Source: Eledone cirrhosa | Lineage: Eukaryota | Direction: 5' to 3' | NCBI GenBank assembly: GCA_964016885.1 | Contig: OZ024741.1 | Span: forward strand, 135,160,001-135,224,000 | Length of the DNA stretch: 64,000 nt | Part shown: positions 11,964 through 63,579 of the stretch, in pieces | Position numbering within the stretch: the stretch's first letter is position 1 | Layout: every line of letters begins with the position of its first letter | Program-made: the position numbers and the translations under genes | Notes under the pieces: model-generated | Told to the model about the DNA's origin: nothing | Databases searched by the model: none | Seen by the model: only the letters and a program-made list of their open reading frames with translations

Positions 11964-14060
11964 CTATTGGGGTGATAACCCGTTTAGTTTTGGTTTAAAT
12001 TTGTTAAGGAATAGATTTTCTTTGTTTATTCTTTGTTGCTGTGTGAACGAATCTGAGCACTTGTAGAAGGGGAAAATTTTAAAGTTGGGTAGTGTCATTC
12101 CTGCGCAGTTCGCAATATGGCTGCTCAAGGGGATTTTTCTTGTGTTAGCGTCCCGGATTTGTTGGCGGTGGATGGTCATTCTTTTGCGTAATGAGGTGCC
12201 CGTCTGTCCTATGTAGTTGTGTTTGCACCCACCGCAAGTTATTGCGTAAATCAAGTTCTCCGAGTTGCAGGTGAAATTGTTTTTTACTGTAAATGTTTGG
12301 CCATCTTTAAATGTAAATTTGTGTCCTTCAGTGAGGTAGAGGCACGTTCCACAGTTTGTTCTACCACATTTGGTAACTGTAGGGTTGAGGATTGGTTTGG
12401 GTATATTTGGTCCAGTGAGAATGCGTTTTAGTGATTTGGGTTGTCTTTTACTTTTAAGGATCTTGTGTGTTTCAAGAATAGACTTCATTTTTACATCTTT
12501 AAGTAGGATGGGGAGGTTTTTGTGTAGGTGATCAAACATTTCGGTATTTCTGGGGTTGAAAGTGGATACATATGGCAGGGTGTTGAGTGTGGTTTTCTGT
12601 TTTGGATTGTTAAGTTGATGGGGATTTAGGTGTTTTGCCCTGTCTATTCCATTGTTGATTATTTCAAGTGGAAAGGCTCTTAAGATAAGGGTGTCTTTTA
12701 GTTCCTTTAGTCTTTGCTCCCGTTTCGGTGGATCTGATACTATGGTACATATACGTTTGGCCAAATTGTAAGGAATGTTAAGTTTTGTGTGTTTTGGGTG
12801 ACTTGATGTGAAAAAGAGGTATTGCTTGGAATCTGTGGGTTTATAGAATATATCTGTATCTAATTTCCCGTCTATTACAGAGATGAGAATATCCAAGAAG
12901 GCTAATTCCTTGGGATTGGATTCCATTGTGAATTGTATGTTATTATATATGTTGTTTATCATGTTTTTAAACATAGCAAGTGAGTTCATGTCTTCTTGCC
13001 ATAGGATAAAGCAGTCGTCTAGATATCTTTTCCAATTGGCTTTCAGGTGTGTGTGGAAAGAGTCTCCAAATAAGAGAAGGGACTGACTGTATATTTGTTG
13101 TTCATGGAATCCCATGACTAGGTTGGCATATGTGGGTGCTACTTTCGTGCCCATTGCCGTACCTGATACTTGTCTGTATGTTGAACCATTGAATGTGAAG
13201 TAGTTATTTTGTAGGATAAAGCGGAGTCCGTCAGTGATAAAATCTTTGTTGATGCGTGTCGGTATTTCTGATGGGTGTGTGTTAAGCCAGTATTGGACTG
13301 CTGTTATTCCATAGTTGTGGGGTATGTTTGTGTAGAGGTTTATTACGTCAAAGGAGACAAAAATTGTATTTGCACTTACTGTTTTAGGGAGGTGTTTCAG
13401 CATGTCAAGGTCATCTCGTATGTAGCTCTGTATATGTTGTAGAAAGGGTTTCAGTAGGATGTCCAGAAAGTTGCTAAGTCTGTGGGTTTCACATGTAGGG
13501 CCTGCTATAATTGGCCTGAGTTTTAGGTCTTCTGGTGGTGTTAGTTCAATGTAATTGTTGGTTGAGGTGTCACATGCATCGTTTATGGGTTTACATTTGT
13601 GGAGTTTCGGTAAGCCGTAAAAAGAGCTTGTATTGCATTTGAAGTGGCTTATATAGTTAAACTCTTTTGTGGTTAAGCTGTTGCGGTATTTATTCAGTAA
13701 GGTCAAAAGGTTCCCCATTGTTTTGGTGTGTTTGTAGTTTTCTGTCTTTTCATAGTATGTGTTGTTTTCTAAAATGTTAAGTGCGAGGGTCCTATAGTAG
13801 TCCGTATTCATAATGACAACAGTACTGCCTTTATCGGCTTCTTTGATAGTTATCTCAGGGTTGTTTCTAAGTGTGAATAATTCTTCCCATTCGTGTGTAG
13901 ATAGGTTTGATTTCGTGTGTTTATTTGTAATTTTTTCATAGGGAAAGTTGGTGATGTGTTCGCAGTACGTGTCCAGTGCTTTATTTCTTCCCTTTTGTGG
14001 GCAGAAATTGCTTTTATTTCTAACCAGTGATTCGTCTTCAGTGTTGGTGTCGTTGTGGAA
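11964..14060 (-). CDS. PLE polyprotein: reverse transcriptase + C-terminal GIY-YIG endonuclease (open frame, N-terminus truncated)
   Basis: Frame stays open upstream of the annotated ATG (13811) to the inversion junction and includes IKEADKGSTVVIM; FYGLPKLHK, LRPII, SFDVINLYTNIP, GTAMG, RYLDD, FLDI, YKPTD; CGRTNCGTC linker; LIYAITC...YIGQT. Confidence 0.93.
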   Translation of the reverse strand, partial: FHNDTNTEDESLVRNKSNFCPQKGRNKALDTYCEHITNFPYEKITNKHTKSNLSTHEWEELFTLRNNPEITIKEADKGSTVVIMNTDYYRTLALNILENNTYYEKTENYKHTKTMGNLLTLLNKYRNSLTTKEFNYISHFKCNTSSFYGLPKLHKCKPINDACDTSTNNYIELTPPEDLKLRPIIAGPTCETHRLSNFLDILLKPFLQHIQSYIRDDLDMLKHLPKTVSANTIFVSFDVINLYTNIPHNYGITAVQYWLNTHPSEIPTRINKDFITDGLRFILQNNYFTFNGSTYRQVSGTAMGTKVAPTYANLVMGFHEQQIYSQSLLLFGDSFHTHLKANWKRYLDDCFILWQEDMNSLAMFKNMINNIYNNIQFTMESNPKELAFLDILISVIDGKLDTDIFYKPTDSKQYLFFTSSHPKHTKLNIPYNLAKRICTIVSDPPKREQRLKELKDTLILRAFPLEIINNGIDRAKHLNPHQLNNPKQKTTLNTLPYVSTFNPRNTEMFDHLHKNLPILLKDVKMKSILETHKILKSKRQPKSLKRILTGPNIPKPILNPTVTKCGRTNCGTCLYLTEGHKFTFKDGQTFTVKNNFTCNSENLIYAITCGGCKHNYIGQTGTSLRKRMTIHRQQIRDANTRKIPLSSHIANCAGMTLPNFKIFPFYKCSDSFTQQQRINKENLFLNKFKPKLNGLSPQ

Positions 14061-14714
14061 ATCTGACCTTTATAAAATAACCCACACCCCCAAATAACTT
14101 CTCATTCACTACCAGAAAGGCACACAGCAGTCAACTTGCGGCTACCAAGACGAAAACTACTATGAAATCCCACAATGAATTTTATACTTGAATTTTCAAA
14201 TCTCAAATTTTAACTCTTCCTATTATTAATTTTTTTTAATATTAATCAACATTTGAAAAGATGGCTTTTGCAGACCCATCGAAACCGGTCATTTTTTATA
14301 CCCTTTATTATTTCCTTACCTTATAAAATTATGTTTTTTCACAAAAAAGTATTCTGTCTCTTATATATTCCATGTGCCATTACCAACCTCAATTTTCTCT
14401 CTCTCTCTATATATATACATATCAATGGAAACTATATTTATAAAACCACATTTATTTAATTACATAAATTTCAAAGGTACCAACATTTTGGTACACCCTC
14501 ATCACATAAAATACAAATTGTTTTTTTTATAAATGGTGACATACCCATGAAACCAGAACTTATCGGTTCAGGTTCAGTTTGGTACCCTTGAAATATATAT
14601 AATAAAATAAATATACTTTTATAAATATAGTTTCCATTTATTAATATCATTGATATTATACCCCAGAAAACTTGTAGAGTGCTTCGAATCTGTTATAAAC
14701 AAAATATCCCTTTA

Positions 14715-28168: not shown

Positions 28169-28235
28169 TTTTATTATGCGCATTTCAAAAACAAATATCA
28201 TCATGCAATAACATTTGTGTTTTCATCAGAAAAAA
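28169..28235 (-). ncRNA. Hammerhead motif (mirror of 28361)
   Basis: tttttt-CTGATGA-aaacacaaat...atttgttttt-GAA-atgcgcat-A-ataaaa. Confidence 0.7.
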
Positions 28236-29850: not shown

Positions 29851-30544
29851 GGGCGGGGGGGGGGGGGGAAGAAGCCAGCAGTACTGGAATGGTACTTTAT
29901 TAACCACCGAAAGTGGGATTTCAATCTAGATTGTAGAAAGCCTTCCAACCGATGTCCTAACATCTCAGCCAATTCTCAATCCCTGACTAACCATTGCTTC
30001 CTTTCCCCCAACAACACTGTTCCATTCAGCCACCATTTTACTATATAATCTCCAAGACCACAAATCAATTTCGTGTCATATTTTACTGTTAAACTAATCT
30101 ACAACATATCTGATCTCTTTGAACAGTATTTTTTTTCCATATCAGTGATTCATGAAATAAAATTAGTTCTATCACATTCTCTCAGGTAGTCACACTGAAT
30201 CAATCATTTATTTTGGCATAATATTAACCATACATTATATAGTGTGAAGGTGTATGGCTTAGTAGTTAGGGAGTTCTGAAAAAGGTAGTCAGAAGCACTG
30301 TTAACCTTTTCTGTCTGTAGAGGTACTTTACTGATTTTCTCAAACATTATTTATAATCATCGACTATTATTATAATTATTTTCATTGGGATGACCACATT
30401 TCAAGATTTCAGAGTTCTTCTTAAAACGACCAGTAATATAATATAATATAATATATATATAATATATATAGTATAATATAATATAATATAATATAATATA
30501 ATATAATATAATATATATATCTGAGTTTTTCGAATATTAATAAT

Positions 30545-30733
30545 TGTTTCTACTTTTGCACAAGGCCAGCAATTACCCAGTGTATTACTGGAATTTTATT
30601 TTATCGACCCCGTAAGGATGAAAGGCAAAGTTAACCTCGGCGGGATTTGAACTGAGAATGGCAAGAGCCGTAACTCTATGCGTCAAAGCATGACGTTCGA
30701 CCCTCTGCCGATACTGCCAATCCACCGCCCTAC
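30545..30733 (-). mobile_element. SINE family A with 14-bp TSD
   Basis: cgaatattaataat at 30531-30544 and 30734-30747. Confidence 0.9.
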
Positions 30734-30847
30734 CGAATATTAATAATAACATTCGATTCATTTGAAATTATGCAAACAAGCCTCAATTTTATAGCCATGT
30801 CAGTAGAATGAACGCTTCATTCTTGCTCATATGTTGGCATGCGAACA

Positions 30848-30897
30848 GAACTGCAGACACTAATATTTCTGGGTATCACCCTTCATCAGTACAGCTC
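30848..30897 (-). ncRNA. Type I hammerhead ribozyme (M1)
   Basis: gagctgta-CTGATGA-agggtgataccca-GAA-atattagtgt-C-tgcagttc; stem I 8 bp; GUC site. Confidence 0.8.
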
Positions 30898-31189
30898 ACT
30901 GTTCACCTGCCAAACTGTCAGAGCTAGTGAAAATATATGCTATTTTCAAAAATACACAGTGACTGATCGGCCCGAATTGCATATTAGCAGACTGGCTGAT
31001 CAGTCAGATCTGCATATTAGCAGATCCACTGATCAGCCAGATTTGCATATCAGCAGACTGGCCATTTATTGTATTCAGCCATGGAGAGCGAAATTTTCTT
31101 TTTTATTTGAATTTGGCAAAGCCGGCCATTTATTGCTCCTATACAGGAAACTGATTTATTATTATTTTTTTTTTAAACTATAAATAAAT

Positions 31190-34180: not shown

Positions 34181-34540
34181 ACTCAGCCGTTAATATGCAT
34201 AAGGTAAGTATATACGTTCAACAATCTGGCAGGAAGGTATACGTTGCTGACGATAGCTAATAAGCTTGAAACTAGTACAGCGTTCCTTTGTCAGTGTTGA
34301 ACAAACGAGCAACGATGGTTGCTAGACACTACGGCTTAATACGGGATGTTTGTTTACAAACACACCGAGCATTATAATAAATGTTCGGTGAATCCATACG
34401 TACATATATATATGTGTGCATGTATGTATATATACATACTACTGTACGTCTGTATACATATATGTATGTACGTGTACATACTTATATTTAAGTAACAGCC
34501 GTACTAAGAGTGGGAAATGAAATTTCGTTTCATTTTTTCC

Positions 34541-44804: not shown

Positions 44805-45527
44805 ATAAGTATGTATACGTACATACATATATGTATACAGACGTACAGTAGTATGTATATATATACATACATGCACACATATATATGTACGTATGTATTT
44901 ACCGACATTTATTATAATGCTCGGTTTGTTTGTAAACAACATCCCGAATATATACGTACATATATATATGTGTGCATGTATGTATATATATACATACTAC
45001 AGTACGTCTGTATACATATATGTATGTACGTATACATACTTATATTTAAATAACAGCCGTACTAAGAGTGAGAAATGAAATTTCGTTTCATTTTTTCCAT
45101 TTATCGTTTTCGGTGCGCTCGGCCGATTAACTCACTCGATATGCAAATTAGGCTGCTCAGCCGTTAATATGCATAAGGAAAGTATATACTTTCAGACGTT
45201 CAATCATCTGGCAGGAAGGTATACGGTGCTGACGATAGCTAATAAGCTTGAAACTAGTACATCGTTCCTTTGTCAGTGTTGAACAAAAGGGCAACGATGG
45301 TTGCTAAACACTGTACGGCTTAATTCGGGATGTTTGTTTACAAACAAACTAAGCATTATAATAAATGTTCGGTAAATCCATACGTACATATATATATGTG
45401 TGCATGTATGTATATATATATATACTACTGTATGTCTGTATACATATATGTATCTACGTATACATACTTATATTTAAGTAACAGCCGTACTAAGAGTGAG
45501 AAATGAAATTTCGTTTCATTTTTTTCC

Positions 45528-46176: not shown

Positions 46177-46244
<68 letters not shown>

Positions 46245-46248
46245 TTTC

Positions 46249-46748
46249 ACTCTACATGGCTGAATACCATAAATGTATTCTGAGTTTTTCGAATATTAAT
46301 AATAATATTCAATTCGTTTGCAATTATGCAAACAAGCCTCATTCTTGCTCTTGAATCTGGCAACGCCGGCCATTGATCGTGTACAGCAAACTGACTGGCC
46401 AGTCTGCTGATATGCAAATTTGGCTGATCAGTGGATCTGCTAATATGCAGATCTGACTGATTAGCCAAATTTGCTAATATGCAAATTAGCCCGATCAGTC
46501 ACTGTATATTTTAGAAAATAGCATATATTTTTACTAGCTCTGACAGTTGGCAGCTGAACAGTGAACTGTACTGATGAAGGGTTATATCCGGAAACATTAG
46601 TGTCTGCAGTTCTGTTTATATGCCAACACAAGAGCAAGAATGAGGGGCTCATTCTACTGACATGGCTTTAAAAATGAGGCTTCTTTGTACAATTGCAAAC
46701 CAATCGAATATTATTATTAATATTTCAAAAACTCAGATTACATTTATT
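46249..46748 (+). mobile_element. Non-autonomous HHR mini-element, family M1
   Basis: 46270-46352 is an inverted copy of the 3' end (46630-46745); three palindromic ~33-bp subrepeats, then the HHR; flanked by (TA)n. Confidence 0.85.
46563..46612 (+). ncRNA. Type I hammerhead ribozyme (M1)
   Basis: gaactgta-CTGATGA-agggttatatccg-GAA-acattagtgt-C-tgcagttc. Confidence 0.82.
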
Positions 46749-46759
46749 ATATATATATG

Positions 46760-46897: not shown

Positions 46898-46933
46898 TCT
46901 TCTGATGAAGGACTAGCATCCGAAACGTTAAGA
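46898..46933 (+). ncRNA. Minimal hammerhead ribozyme (family M3)
   Basis: tctt-CTGATGA-aggactagcatcc-GAA-acgt-T-aaga. Confidence 0.75.
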
Positions 46934-51931: not shown

Positions 51932-52233
51932 ATAACTAACAAAAAGTTATCGCTCTACATGGCTGAATACCATAAATGTAATCTGAGATTTTCGAGTATT
52001 AATAATAATATTCGATTCGTTTGCAAACAGCCTCTTTTAAGCCATGTCAGTAGAATGATCTTCTTATTCTTGTCTTTGTGTTGACATGTAAACAGAACTG
52101 CTGACACTAATGTTTCTGGGTAATTACCATTCATCAGTGCTTAAAAGCTTAAGCTGACATGGTTTAAAAGAGGCTGTTTGCAGATTACATATATTGTATT
52201 CAGCCATCTAGAGCGATAATTTTTTGTTAGTTA
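51932..52233 (-). mobile_element. Family M1 mini-element with inverted termini and an HHR truncated in stem I (52095-52140)
   Basis: ataactaacaaaaagttatcgctctacatggctgaatac mirrored at 52196-52233; CTGATGA-atggtaattaccca-GAA-acattagtgt-C. Confidence 0.78.
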
Positions 52234-52308
52234 TACATTTATAATTTGCTTGTTTATCATTCACTTGCTAAGTTCATAGCTTCTAATTCGAATGGAAGGA
52301 GACGGGAT

Positions 52309-52379
52309 GTGTATTGGTGTAATGGTAGCACAGTGGTCCGGATAACCAAAGATGTGGGTTCGACTCCCATGTACGGCAA
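52309..52379 (+). pseudogene. tRNA-like sequence (pseudogene or repeat head)
   Basis: A box tggtgtaatgg, B box ggttcgactcc, T stem gtggg/cccat, anticodon-like stem tggt/acca; acceptor stem and anticodon loop imperfect. Confidence 0.5.
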
Positions 52380-52825
52380 CATTCATCTTTTTCCATTTCT
52401 CCGAGGGTTATAAACCCCACTATCAGGATAGAAATTTCTTTAGTCTAAAATACGGTGAAAGCTTATAATTTCTAATTTCTAATTTTCAAACTCGCGCAAC
52501 GTTTCAAAAAACATACTTACATGTTTACATTTATAATTTGCTTGTTTATATATATATATATATATAATTTTATATATATATATATATATAATTATATATA
52601 TATATATATATATTTCGTTTCTGAATTTGTTTAGCAAGATTCTTTATCTGAAAACGTGTGTTGAAACCGATATTGTTATACTTTGGGAGGGTCATGTTGC
52701 CAATAAGAAACACATACACCAGGTACTTTTACTCCAATTTATTATAAATTAAATTTATAAATTTAAGAATTTATAAATTTCCGGTTGGTTGGTTGGTTCC
52801 ATAACCGGATGGTTGTTCATATATT

Positions 52826-52868
52826 GTCAAAGTTCTTTCGTCACACATTCTGTGACCTCTTCAGTGAC
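52826..52868 (-). ncRNA. Minimal hammerhead ribozyme in pLTR
   Basis: gtca-CTGAAGA-g gtcaca gaatg tgtgac-GAA-agaact-T-tgac. Confidence 0.7.
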
Positions 52869-53062
52869 TGGGGATTCTTTTCTTTGTTTTGTGCCTCTCC
52901 TTTGTTCTGTCCTACGCCATTTTGTTTTTGTGTGTTGTGTCCTTAGTTTGCGCATGTGTTACATCCGGGTGTCTGTGTGTGTTTTTATTTGTTTATTTAT
53001 TTGTTTATTTACATGTTACTGGTTGGTTGTTTGTTCTATGTGTGTGTGTTTTCATTTTGTCC

Positions 53063-53990
53063 TTAATTGTAAGTTGTCATGTTGCTATTCCATTCATCTT
53101 TTCTATTTAATTTGGGTTGGAGTTCATTTATGTTTATTGCCTCTGTGATTTGTCTAAACATTGTATCTTTTCTGTGTGTAGATTCTATTTTTATTTCTAT
53201 GTTCTCTAATTTTCCCTTATGTTCTATTTTAGCATGTTGGTGGAGTATTGATGATTCTTTTTTATCTTGAAGTTTTCGCCAGTATTCATTTAACCGTTCT
53301 CCTATGCTACGAGCTGTCTCACCTATGTACACTATATTCTTATCTCTACATTGTCCTTCAGTACATCTTATGCTATATACTACATTTCTAGTTTTACAGT
53401 TAATATGGGGGCTTAGTTTACAGATTATGCATTTCTTATCTATACAGGGAGGTCTTTGAAAAGGGTATGTATTGCTAATAAGTGTTTTTTATGGAGGTAC
53501 CTGGTTTTTCTACTATCTTAATATTAAGTTAATGTTTATCTAGGGCCCTTCTAAATTTGTAAGCTAATTCACCTCTAGGGGTTGTATTGATGATCATTAC
53601 ACTCTGGTATTTATTGCTATCATACCATGAGTTTACTCTATTAACCTTATTCCAAGTTCTTTCTATTCTATTCCAAAATTTGCTTCTATTTGCTCCATTT
53701 GCTCCATTAGTATCATTATTTAACATTTTTCCCATTTGGTTCTGGCTCCTCTATATACTCTGATTTTATCTCTCTGATTGTAACCAGAGAACTGCATACG
53801 GTAGATGAAGTGTTGTATGTGTCTCTCTAGTTCTTTGAGGTTGCACATGCGGGACACGTTTCTCATCACCCGTACCAAATCCGCAATCAATATGTTGATT
53901 TTGGTGTGGTCCGAAACAGCTGAGTTTCGGTGGATCAGATATTTGGAAGTCATGGGTTTGGCATAATGGGAATGGAGGATTTGTTCACAT
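53063..53990 (-). pseudogene. PLE RT thumb + GIY-YIG, frameshifted
   Basis: ORF pieces 53720-53990, 53529-53735 and 53063-53332. Confidence 0.82.
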
Positions 53991-54119
53991 CCTCCATTCA
54001 AATCATTCCATTCCCAGAAGCCAGAACCAAATGGGAAAAAATGGGAAATAATGATACAAATGGGACCTGCTCTTGTATAGGAGCAAAGGAGAGGCACAAA
54101 ACAAAGAAAAGAATCCCCA

Positions 54120-54162
54120 ATCACCGAAGAGGTCACAGAATGTGTGACGAAAGAACTTTGAC
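54120..54162 (+). ncRNA. Hammerhead motif in the inverted pLTR (CCGAAGA core)
   Basis: Mirror of 52826 with a U4C change. Confidence 0.6.
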
Positions 54163-54554
54163 AATATATGAACAACTGTCCGGTTATGGAACCAACCAGC
54201 CAACCGAAATTTATAAATTCTTAAATTTATAAATTTAATTTATAATAAATTGGAGTGAAAGCAACTGGTACGTGTGTTTCTTATTGGCAACATGACCCTC
54301 CCAAAGCATAATAATATATATATATATATATATACTCGAAGGCGGTCAGCCAAAGTGACATCAACTGGCCCTCTTGATCGCCTTCGAGTCAAAAACGTTT
54401 TTCCTGTTTTTTTTTCCTACATGATACTTATAAAAGTGTATGTACGTTCCTCTTTGTTTATATATATATATATATATTTACACATTATATATATATATAT
54501 ATATATTATAAAATAACCGGAGGCTGGACTGGGGTAATTCCTTAAAGGTTTATT

Positions 54555-61689: not shown

Positions 61690-62487
61690 TAAACATGCAT
61701 ATAGTCTTACTTTGAATATTTACAGCTGTAAATATATCACAACCACCTCAGTACTGGTGTTAGAGCAATGCATACGTGTACATATAGTCTTGCTGTGAGT
61801 ATTTTATTTTGTGAACATATAACAGCTACTTGAGTACTGTTGTATATTGCTGTATACATCTATACCAGGATTCTTTATTCACCATCACGGACGCTTACTA
61901 CTCTAAGATAAGACTGGAAAATTATTTTTCTGGGAAGCCTATTTATATACAATGCAAGCTTGACTAATATGAATTGACGATAGCACTAACGCAGCGTGAT
62001 TCAGAATAAAGGCATATATTAGCCTATCTAGAATATTTTTATGTATAATAAACATACATATAGCTTCATATATAGTTTGTTTACAAAATCTATTAGTGAT
62101 ATCGCTAGCACAGTATATTATACAGGTGGTTAGTTTTTATGTTGCATCTATTAGCAACGCAACCATTTTGATTTTTCACCTGTGAAATTGCAGGTATTAA
62201 ATAGGACCATTAACTGCGTCAATATCCTCATTGTAGGAGAATCTGCGAAAGCTCGCCACCGTCTCTTCTTTCAGACGGCTTCATTCTTTATAAAAAAGCA
62301 CATTTCATTCATATAATTTCTACACCCACCCACGAAAAAAGTGTTCATTTATAGTATTGTAACTATGACTAGTGCATGTAGAACCTAGATTTCTACTTTA
62401 CTAACTTGAACAAAGAAGATTTCTGTATGACTCCCACTATCATTTGTCAATGAAATCAAAATACATAGTTAATACATTTTCGTCCCT

Positions 62488-63524
62488 ATTTGTGATATGT
62501 ATGTGCCTGTGTGAATGTGTGTGAAATTGTGATATGCATGTAAATGTGTGTGTATTTGTGATATGTATGTGCCTGTGTGAATGTGTGTGTGTGTGTGTTT
62601 GCGTATTTGTGATATGCATGTGCCTGTGTGAATGTGTGTGTGTGTTTGTATAATTGTGATATGCATGTGCCTGTGTGAATGTGTGTGTGTTTGTGTATTT
62701 GTGATATGCATGTGCCTGTGTGAATGTGTGTGTGTGTTTGTGTAATTGTGATATGCATGTGCCTGTGTGAATGTGTGTGTGTGTTTGTGTAATTGTGATA
62801 TGCATGTGCCTGTGTGAATGTGTGTGTGTGTTTGTGTAATTGTGATATGCATGTGCCTGTGTGAATGTGTGTGTGTTTGTGTATTTGTGATATGCATGTG
62901 CCTGTGTGAATGTGTGTGTGTGTTTGTGTAATTGTGATATGCATGTGCCTGTGTGAATGTGTGTGTGTTTGTGTATTTGTGATATGCATGTGCCTGTGTG
63001 AATGTGTGTGTGTGTTTGTGTAATTGTGATATGCATGTGCCTGTGTGAATGTGTGTGTGTGTTTGTGTAATTGTGATATGCATGTGCCTGTGTGAATGTG
63101 TGTGTGTGTTTGTGTAATTGTGATATGCATGTGCCTGTGTGAATGTGTGTGTGTGTTTGTGTAATTGTGATATGCATGTGCCTGTGTGAATGTGTGTGTG
63201 TGTTTGTGTAATTGTGATATGCATGTGCCTGTGTGAATGTGTGTGTGTGTTTGTGTAATTGTGATATGCATGTGCCTGTGTGAATGTGTGTGTGTTTGTG
63301 TATTTGTGATATGCATGTGCCTGTGTGAATGTGTGTGTGTGTTTGTGTATTTGTGATATACATGTGCCTGTGTGTGTGTTTGTGTATTTGTGATATGCAT
63401 GTGCCTGTGTGAATGTGTGTGTGGGGTGTATTTGTGATATGCATGTGCCTGTGTGAATGTGTGTGTGTTTGTGTATTTGTGATATGCATGTGCCTGTGTG
63501 AATGTGTGTGTGGGGTGTATTTGT
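62488..63524. repeat. Homogeneous minisatellite, ~45-47-bp unit, about 22 copies
   Basis: ttgtgatatgcatgtgcctgtgtgaat(gt)n ttgtgta. Confidence 0.95.
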
Positions 63525-63579
63525 GCGATATTATGTGTGTACCTTTTCTATTTGAGAACATTTGTGTGAGTGTGAATAT

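Follow-up and report, generated by a model that had tools for sequence, protein, structure and literature searches.

Introduction

Metazoan non-LTR retrozymes are non-coding tandem units of 150–450 bp with a type I hammerhead ribozyme and a GC content below 45% (Cervera and de la Pena 2020, PMC7229834; Li, Clavereau and Pollet 2026, bioRxiv 10.64898/2026.07.22.740005). Their mobilisation by Penelope-like elements (PLEs) is proposed, without demonstration, in PMC7229834. PLE insertions contain an inverted and 5'-truncated copy, carry a 30–40-bp tail that is often present at one end only, and are biased to (TA)n targets (Craig et al. 2021, PMC8557442). For the PLE Poseidon PAc, two reverse transcription start sites bound the tail in vitro, both strands are cut and extended, uncut RNA is usable and a dimer is predicted; a difference between the strands in the start site was not seen in this assay (Frangieh et al. 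2024, PMC11167929). The hammerheads of PLEs are reported to cleave weakly or in a dimer-dependent manner (Cervera and de la Pena 2014, PMC4209133). The origin of the tandem and inverted PLE insertions is stated as unresolved in both PMC8557442 and PMC11167929, and a guide to transposable-element curation treats the PLE tandems (PMC8969392).

The family described here, M1, is by sequence criteria a non-LTR retrozyme with a predicted type I hammerhead. Like the metazoan retrozymes of PMC7229834, it has a unit of suitable size and composition (440 nt, GC 39%) and a strongly self-paired predicted circle, co-occurs with PLEs, and is dispersed mostly as monomer-sized copies. Unlike most of them, its predicted fold blocks the hammerhead core. 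Inverted two-armed insertions or fixed ends of retrozymes are not described in the consulted parts of PMC7229834 and bioRxiv 10.64898/2026.07.22.740005. M1 resembles PLEs in its partial tandems, inverted 5'-truncated copies, one-end tail and AT-rich or (TA)n targets, and also in having two end points that bound the tail and in reading through the hammerhead site. Unlike PLEs, M1 encodes no reverse transcriptase-endonuclease (RT-EN), and a partner pLTR was not found in the sampled loci.

Three M1 copies in the window

The window (the whole 64,000-nt stretch of Eledone cirrhosa DNA that was analysed) contains three M1 copies, A, B and C, with homology of 89% over 330 nt between A and B and of 82% over 179 nt between B and C. 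Their 3' ends are described by unit position and by two end points, the short end E1 (unit 398–409) and the longer end E2 (unit 420 to 9, an A/T-rich linker), which are separated by about 25–40 nt; E2 corresponds to the PLE "tail". The features are as follows, placed by unit alignment unless another basis is given.

30520..31064, minus strand: main arm of copy A, with its E1 end near 30520 and its inner end at unit 53, and with a SINE inserted in it
within 30520..31064, minus strand: hammerhead core of copy A (30889–30883), with the predicted cut after 30856
30545..30733, minus strand: abundant SINE unrelated to M1, inside copy A, with a 14-nt target duplication (sequence comparison)
31063..31154, plus strand: inverted piece of copy A, unit 397–440 (tail and unit junction), then 1–51
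46244..46752, no strand assigned: copy B, a complete two-armed insertion with a (TA)n tract at either side (sequence comparison)
46244..46353, minus strand: inverted arm of copy B, from the tailed end E2 (unit 428) to unit 326 (comparison and direct sequence reading)
46351..46752, plus strand: main arm of copy B, from unit 4 to 403–408, ending at E1 with the tail absent
46547..46626, plus strand: predicted type I hammerhead motif of copy B (motif and pairing)
51934..52138, minus strand: left arm of copy C, a variant subfamily, from E2 back to unit 226
within the left arm, minus strand: hammerhead core of copy C (52137–52131), with the 5' strand of stem I missing, lost at the inversion junction
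52154..52232, plus strand: right arm of copy C, with an internal deletion and again an E2 end

In copy B, the two arms overlap by 3 nt, and beyond unit 326 the inverted arm continues into a 17-nt upstream-derived piece (matching 46629–46645) through a shared 7-nt word. In copy A, the overlap at the inversion junction is 2 nt and the outer end (unit 51) matches neither E1 nor E2. Because the inverted piece of copy A crosses the unit junction and runs on to 31154, its true end is not at 31092, where the first-pass annotation had placed it, and copy A has no 3' terminus on its right side. The two arms of copy C share C-specific variants. Copy B thus joins an E2 arm to an E1 arm, which is the pairing found in most of the sampled inverted insertions with both ends at E1 or E2 (see below), and copies A (unit 51) and C (E2 twice) are exceptions to it. 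The first-pass annotation was right that the three copies are homologous and share a hammerhead, with an 8-bp stem I and a GUC site in A and B and a truncated stem I in C, and the unit positions bear out its observation that the inversion junction differs in each copy. Its further statement, that the two termini of each copy are one and the same 3' end in opposite orientations, holds for copy C and fails for copy B (E2 versus E1) and copy A (unit 51).

A single stop-to-stop frame of at least 120 aa overlaps a window copy (30812–31183), and it spans an inversion junction. No PLE protein match was found inside the M1 copies, and an RT plus GIY-YIG ORF of an autonomous PLE is absent from them.

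The SINE of 30545–30733 was seen inside M1 in 21 more cases (e.g. L002, L012, L090, L103), always at one site within an AT-rich hairpin and in one orientation, with varied 5' junctions. These cases may be independent insertions or co-mobilised composites. A SINE hotspot in M1 was considered and is not significant (22 at one ATTATT-type site in 240 passes versus 29 in 553 background sites, p = 0.057). Several other repeats lie in the window. At 46902–46933 (plus strand), 150 nt downstream of copy B, another family contributes a minimal hammerhead-like motif. Back-to-back hammerhead motifs of another family, at 28229 (minus strand) and 28367 (plus strand), probably belong to a small two-armed insertion, and similar pairs occur at L002, L008, L097, L133 and L230. 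Directly after copy C, a repeat with a tRNA-like head occupies 52258–52535 (Rfam tRNA, 33.3 bits, 52311–52375), and at L016 an 82% similar copy of it adjoins an M1 arm whose variant linker is also similar. A tandem array of 45–47-nt units is at 62402–63530, and the repeat-finder output for the window is dominated by microsatellites.

M1 is a tandem unit with many copies and sister families

Rather than an element bounded by two termini, M1 is a tandem unit with circular permutation. The unit of about 440 nt is arranged head to tail, and in the alignments the end of a copy leads directly into its own beginning. Of 132 arms, 17 exceed one unit in length and 71 read past the predicted cut site. 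Among the 100 places listed, same-strand ribozyme pairs have spacings of 437 and 444 nt. The predicted circle folds at −171.8 kcal/mol with 73% of the bases paired (z −12.8 versus 40 shuffles), to which an internal repeat contributes part.

In the 3.0-Gb genome, the 25-letter motif beside E1 has 3,802 exact matches and the 34-letter ribozyme motif 1,305, with 0 matches for either reversed control; copy B as a query gave 3,606 first-look candidates. Four insertions in 230 kb of unselected DNA, together with the three in the window, lead to a rough estimate of tens of thousands of M1 copies. The mean difference from the family majority is 5.4% per segment (158 segments), which indicates that the family is not very young. 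Parts of the unit are also present in contigs of three runs, two of them under other organism codes, and these have no bearing on expression.

M1 belongs to a clade of homologous units in the genome that includes M2, M3 and M4, and M3 is represented in the window.

45035..45390, plus strand: M3 sister retrozyme copy, about 71% like M2, with its own compensated hammerhead (sequence comparison)
34182..34406: second, partial M3 copy

An M3 trimer is present at locus L135, further loci of the sister families M2–M4 were seen at L011:2340–2680, L204 and L214, and M2 and M3 have a microsatellite inside the unit. Compared with the sister families, M1 has an internal expansion of about 96 nt in which the word ATGCA(A/G)AT, single in the sisters, is triplicated. 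In the window the expansion lies at 46390–46510, and the triplicated word is partly palindromic. The word resembles the "octamer", and we take it to be a possible promoter element.

The predicted M1 hammerhead

Copies A and B share a CUGAUGA...GAAA core, a contiguous 8-bp stem I and a GUC site, with predicted cuts after 30856 (minus strand) and after 46604 (plus strand). In copy B, stem I pairs 46563–46570 with 46605–46612 and extends further out, the core is at 46571–46577, stem II has 4 bp with one unpaired base on each side, and stem/loop III is near-palindromic. Stem I of A and B reaches about 21 bp with interruptions. All three subfamily polymorphisms within stem I (unit 221, 273 and 274) swap Watson-Crick and G-U pairs. 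In M2 and M3 the letters of stem I differ yet still pair, loop III is palindromic, and the sites are GUU or GUA, so that the triplet is still NUH. A MAFFT alignment across M1 and the sister families put stem III out of register. Rfam gave no hammerhead match at E≤10 on 46480–46720 of copy B and none among the best 150 of 272 matches over the window; the ribozyme call therefore rests on motif and pairing.

The full core and the unpaired base after position 9 are like those of the minimal and canonical type I hammerheads of PLEs, and the palindromic stem/loop III is likewise suited to dimers (PMC4209133). Unlike the canonical type I hammerhead, M1 has an interrupted stem I of this length and lacks the G10.1–C11.1 pair beside the core; in its place stands an A.A mismatch, or one additional A ahead of GAAA. 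An A adjoins stem II on either side in more than 93% of the copies and also in M2, and T.T takes this place in M3. Stem II is mismatched at its base in the axolotl HHR_Amex2 too (PMC7229834). Hammerheads with a T.T mismatch at this position were also seen at L260:2150–2190, 390 nt downstream of a GIY-YIG domain, and at L035:2424 and L159:2301, so the mismatch type occurs beside PLE coding sequence too (L260).

The active monomer fold lies 6.3 kcal/mol above the predicted minimum. For dimers, the predicted values are −65.6 for the active form, −66.0 for two inactive monomers and −73.8 for the inactive dimer. M1 cleavage is predicted from these models to be weak or dimer-dependent. In 6/77 arms the 5' end lies within 7 nt of the hammerhead cut, compared with a mean of 3.4% per 7 nt, which is at most a weak excess; one arm, at locus L011, stops exactly at the cut site.

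Inverted M1 insertions pair two different 3' ends

To describe the family beyond the window, 165 clusters were reduced to 139 distinct insertions by removing repeats and edge-cut cases, and the segmental duplicates L010 and L178 were also dropped for the later counts of alleles and arm lengths. Most of the sampled insertions lie in the first 70 Mb of a single contig and were collected through exact-motif matches, which biases the sample to less diverged and two-armed copies.

The 3' ends of M1 fall at the two points E1 and E2. A (TA)n tract is found within 35 nt of 128/162 3' ends, compared with 610/6,555 background tiles (about 9%). Inverted arrangements with the 3' ends outward account for 77/139 insertions, a share raised by the over-representation of two-armed copies in the sample, and one insertion is convergent. 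When both ends of an inverted insertion lie at E1 or E2, one arm ends at E1 and the other at E2 in 54 of 60 cases (p = 1e-10 versus 0.5), in 53/59 after one duplicate was dropped, and in 44/49 of the set that was not chosen by likeness to copy B. The selecting motif is present in both arm types, so the pairing is not a selection effect. The same end is used twice in 6/60, copy C among them, and at least one end lies away from E1 and E2 in 17/77 inverted insertions. In 40/56 inverted insertions (TA)n flanks both sides and makes a target-site duplication unreadable; the other 16 have no constant repeat.

The two arms are made at each insertion and share alleles

The shorter arm, which looks like a terminal inverted repeat (TIR), is 23–632 nt long in insertions of 150–1,289 nt, and the lengths of the two arms are uncorrelated (rho −0.03). 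This agrees with the proposal of the first-pass annotation that apparent TIRs arise anew with every insertion. In 27/53 E1/E2 insertions neither arm is contained in the other; each arm then has sequence that is absent from the other, which excludes fold-back copying in these cases. In 19/53 the E1 arm is contained in the E2 arm, as fold-back would also yield. An E1 arm colliding with the E2 primer was ruled out, because E1 and E2 arms alike stop near the A/T-rich unit junction.

At the subfamily-diagnostic sites, the two arms of one insertion agree at 289/316, compared with 55% between insertions (maximum 69% in 2,000 shuffles). Rare alleles are common to both arms at 22/448 versus 0.8%, about six-fold. 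Subfamily waves or later gene conversion could contribute to this sharing. Between successive laps within an arm, diagnostic sites agree at 162/183 and rare alleles are common at 8/311; this agreement fits a circular template and an uncut multimer alike and does not separate them.

At the inner junctions, of which 55/75 could be anchored, breakpoints are variable and microhomology is in excess: at least 2 nt were found at 22/55 junctions versus 17% simulated (p = 7e-5). The remaining 33/55 are without 2-nt microhomology, and 14/55 have at least 3 extra bases. Template jumps within arms were found in copy B, L127 and L146.

A PLE family in the same genome leaves the same footprint

A PLE insertion next to copy C served as a control outside M1.

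52613..54317, no strand assigned: two-armed insertion of a GIY-YIG-bearing PLE family (sequence comparison)

Its tailed end (52613) and its short end (54317) both adjoin (TA)n, and a minimal hammerhead is present. The two fixed ends of this family are 57 nt apart and are paired in 4/4 inverted insertions with both ends visible. The control shows the same end pairing, and autonomous-type PLEs in this genome thus leave an M1-like footprint. As a partner of M1, the control PLE was set aside; with a tail and a hammerhead of its own, it is no evident candidate.

The partner search took in a few PLE families of the genome. The 30 loci sampled from the most active family (777-aa) contain no autonomous PLE with M1 sequence, and 70 more GIY-YIG/PLE loci (30 of the GIY-YIG family, 20 and 20 of two other families) show no M1-like 3' end. 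Matches to M1 near PLEs at L241 and L255 are neighbouring insertions more than 1 kb from the GIY-YIG match. The autonomous PLE sharing the M1 3' terminus that the first-pass annotation had proposed to look for was thus not found in the 100 sampled loci, and the mobilising enzyme is assigned by footprint only. The footprint, with its one-sided tail, (TA)n targets and inverted arms, does match PLE machinery, the likely mobiliser. Elsewhere in the window, a 701-aa open frame at 11964–14069 (minus strand) belongs to a very young RT-bearing PLE family with many copies 98–99% identical, 777-aa frames and a long microsatellite in the 3' UTR.

How the two arms may arise

MITEs and foldback elements are small, non-coding and present in high copy number, with terminal inverted repeats. 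M1 could be taken for such a DNA transposon with a chance hammerhead-like motif, as it is small, has many copies with inverted termini, and its (TA)n flanks are compatible with a TA duplication. Unlike in MITEs or foldbacks, however, the M1 TIRs vary in length, the two termini differ (E1 and E2), some arms read through in tandem beyond one unit, and many copies are single-armed and 5'-truncated, so that a transposon origin is very improbable. A retroposed origin of M1 is strongly supported, and on this point the first-pass annotation, which had read these copies as retroposed ribozyme elements, was correct.

M1 is a protein-free, non-LTR retrozyme of about 440 nt that is probably copied by PLE machinery into (TA)n by two-sided extension from E1 and E2. 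An M1 RNA would be the intermediate and, judging from the footprint, would be mobilised by a borrowed Penelope-like RT-EN. At a cut (TA)n site, both DNA ends would be extended on the same RNA species, one from E1 and the other from E2; this two-sided target-primed reverse transcription would give back-to-back arms of random length, and the two cDNA 3' ends may then be joined by microhomology or by repair fill-in. Two cDNAs of one RNA species, each primed from one side of the break, are the simplest reading and the one we favour. The first-pass annotation had instead attributed the inversion to template switching, in which a single primed cDNA is made and the RT jumps to the nascent cDNA or to an antisense RNA, making the inverted arm. 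Variable junctions with excess microhomology, alleles common to both arms, the nested E1 arms of 19/53 insertions and the jumps that do occur inside arms are all compatible with such switching. However, switching does not account for a second arm that ends against (TA)n at the other fixed point, the arms start at different fixed points in 53/59, and their lengths are uncorrelated. The shared alleles and the 27/53 non-nested insertions, for which fold-back is refuted, favour two cDNAs over a template switch, which we consider unlikely as the source of the inversion. In LINE-1 twin priming, the second primer anneals just upstream of the stop of the first cDNA. Twin priming of this type on a multimeric RNA fits copy A exactly (the inverted piece ends at unit 51, the main arm starts at 53, and they overlap by 2 nt) and is compatible with copy B (428 versus 4), but in most insertions the inverted arm has its outer end fixed at E1 or E2 regardless of where the other arm ends on the inside, and by our estimate chance alone would give about the one near-adjacent case seen in the 17 non-canonical insertions; as a general explanation, twin priming has little probability.

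The same PLE machinery might also copy two independent RNAs, with the E1/E2 rule arising from endonuclease end resolution instead of two start sites. The tail has been ascribed to EN-mediated resolution (PMC8557442), one dominant subfamily at a time could explain the allele sharing, and the sharing of rare alleles is low in absolute terms (22/448). On the other side, the RT start sites in vitro are the tail boundaries (PMC11167929), and 91% concordance is about that of identical arms after 5% divergence each, though several subfamilies co-exist. We regard two independent RNAs as a less probable but serious alternative. More specifically for the two-sided reading, and tentatively, a PLE RT-EN dimer might hold one circular retrozyme RNA and cut both strands of (TA)n, with its subunits starting at E1 and E2; this geometry is possible, and we would not yet call it probable. 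No paper stating it as such was found in the open-licence PMC and bioRxiv literature.

Implications for PLEs and retrozymes

Insertions in tandem or inverted form that have the tail on one side have already been published as PLE traits (PMC8557442). What M1 adds is a near-strict E1/E2 pairing, counted per insertion, and the allele sharing between arms. The one-sided tail is treated qualitatively in the consulted parts of PMC8557442 and PMC11167929, whereas for M1 it is counted in individual insertions (53/59) and comes together with shared alleles. No paper that counts end pairing or describes inverted retrozyme insertions was found in the open-licence literature searched, and the supplement figures of the PLE papers could already show the pairing.

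With thousands of short non-coding copies, M1 provides per-insertion statistics that constrain the PLE mechanism. The in vitro assay available for PLEs also gains a small RNA substrate in M1, and the PLE family of 11964–14069 is a candidate enzyme for such work. For curation, TIR-like families of such genomes whose arms are variable and whose ends differ are best treated as PLE-mobilised retroelements. If the dimer on one circular RNA is true, one cause would underlie three features of PLEs in general, namely their inverted copies, the tail on one side and the longer-than-unit tandems, and M1 would be genomic evidence for a circular-template route that has already been proposed in print.
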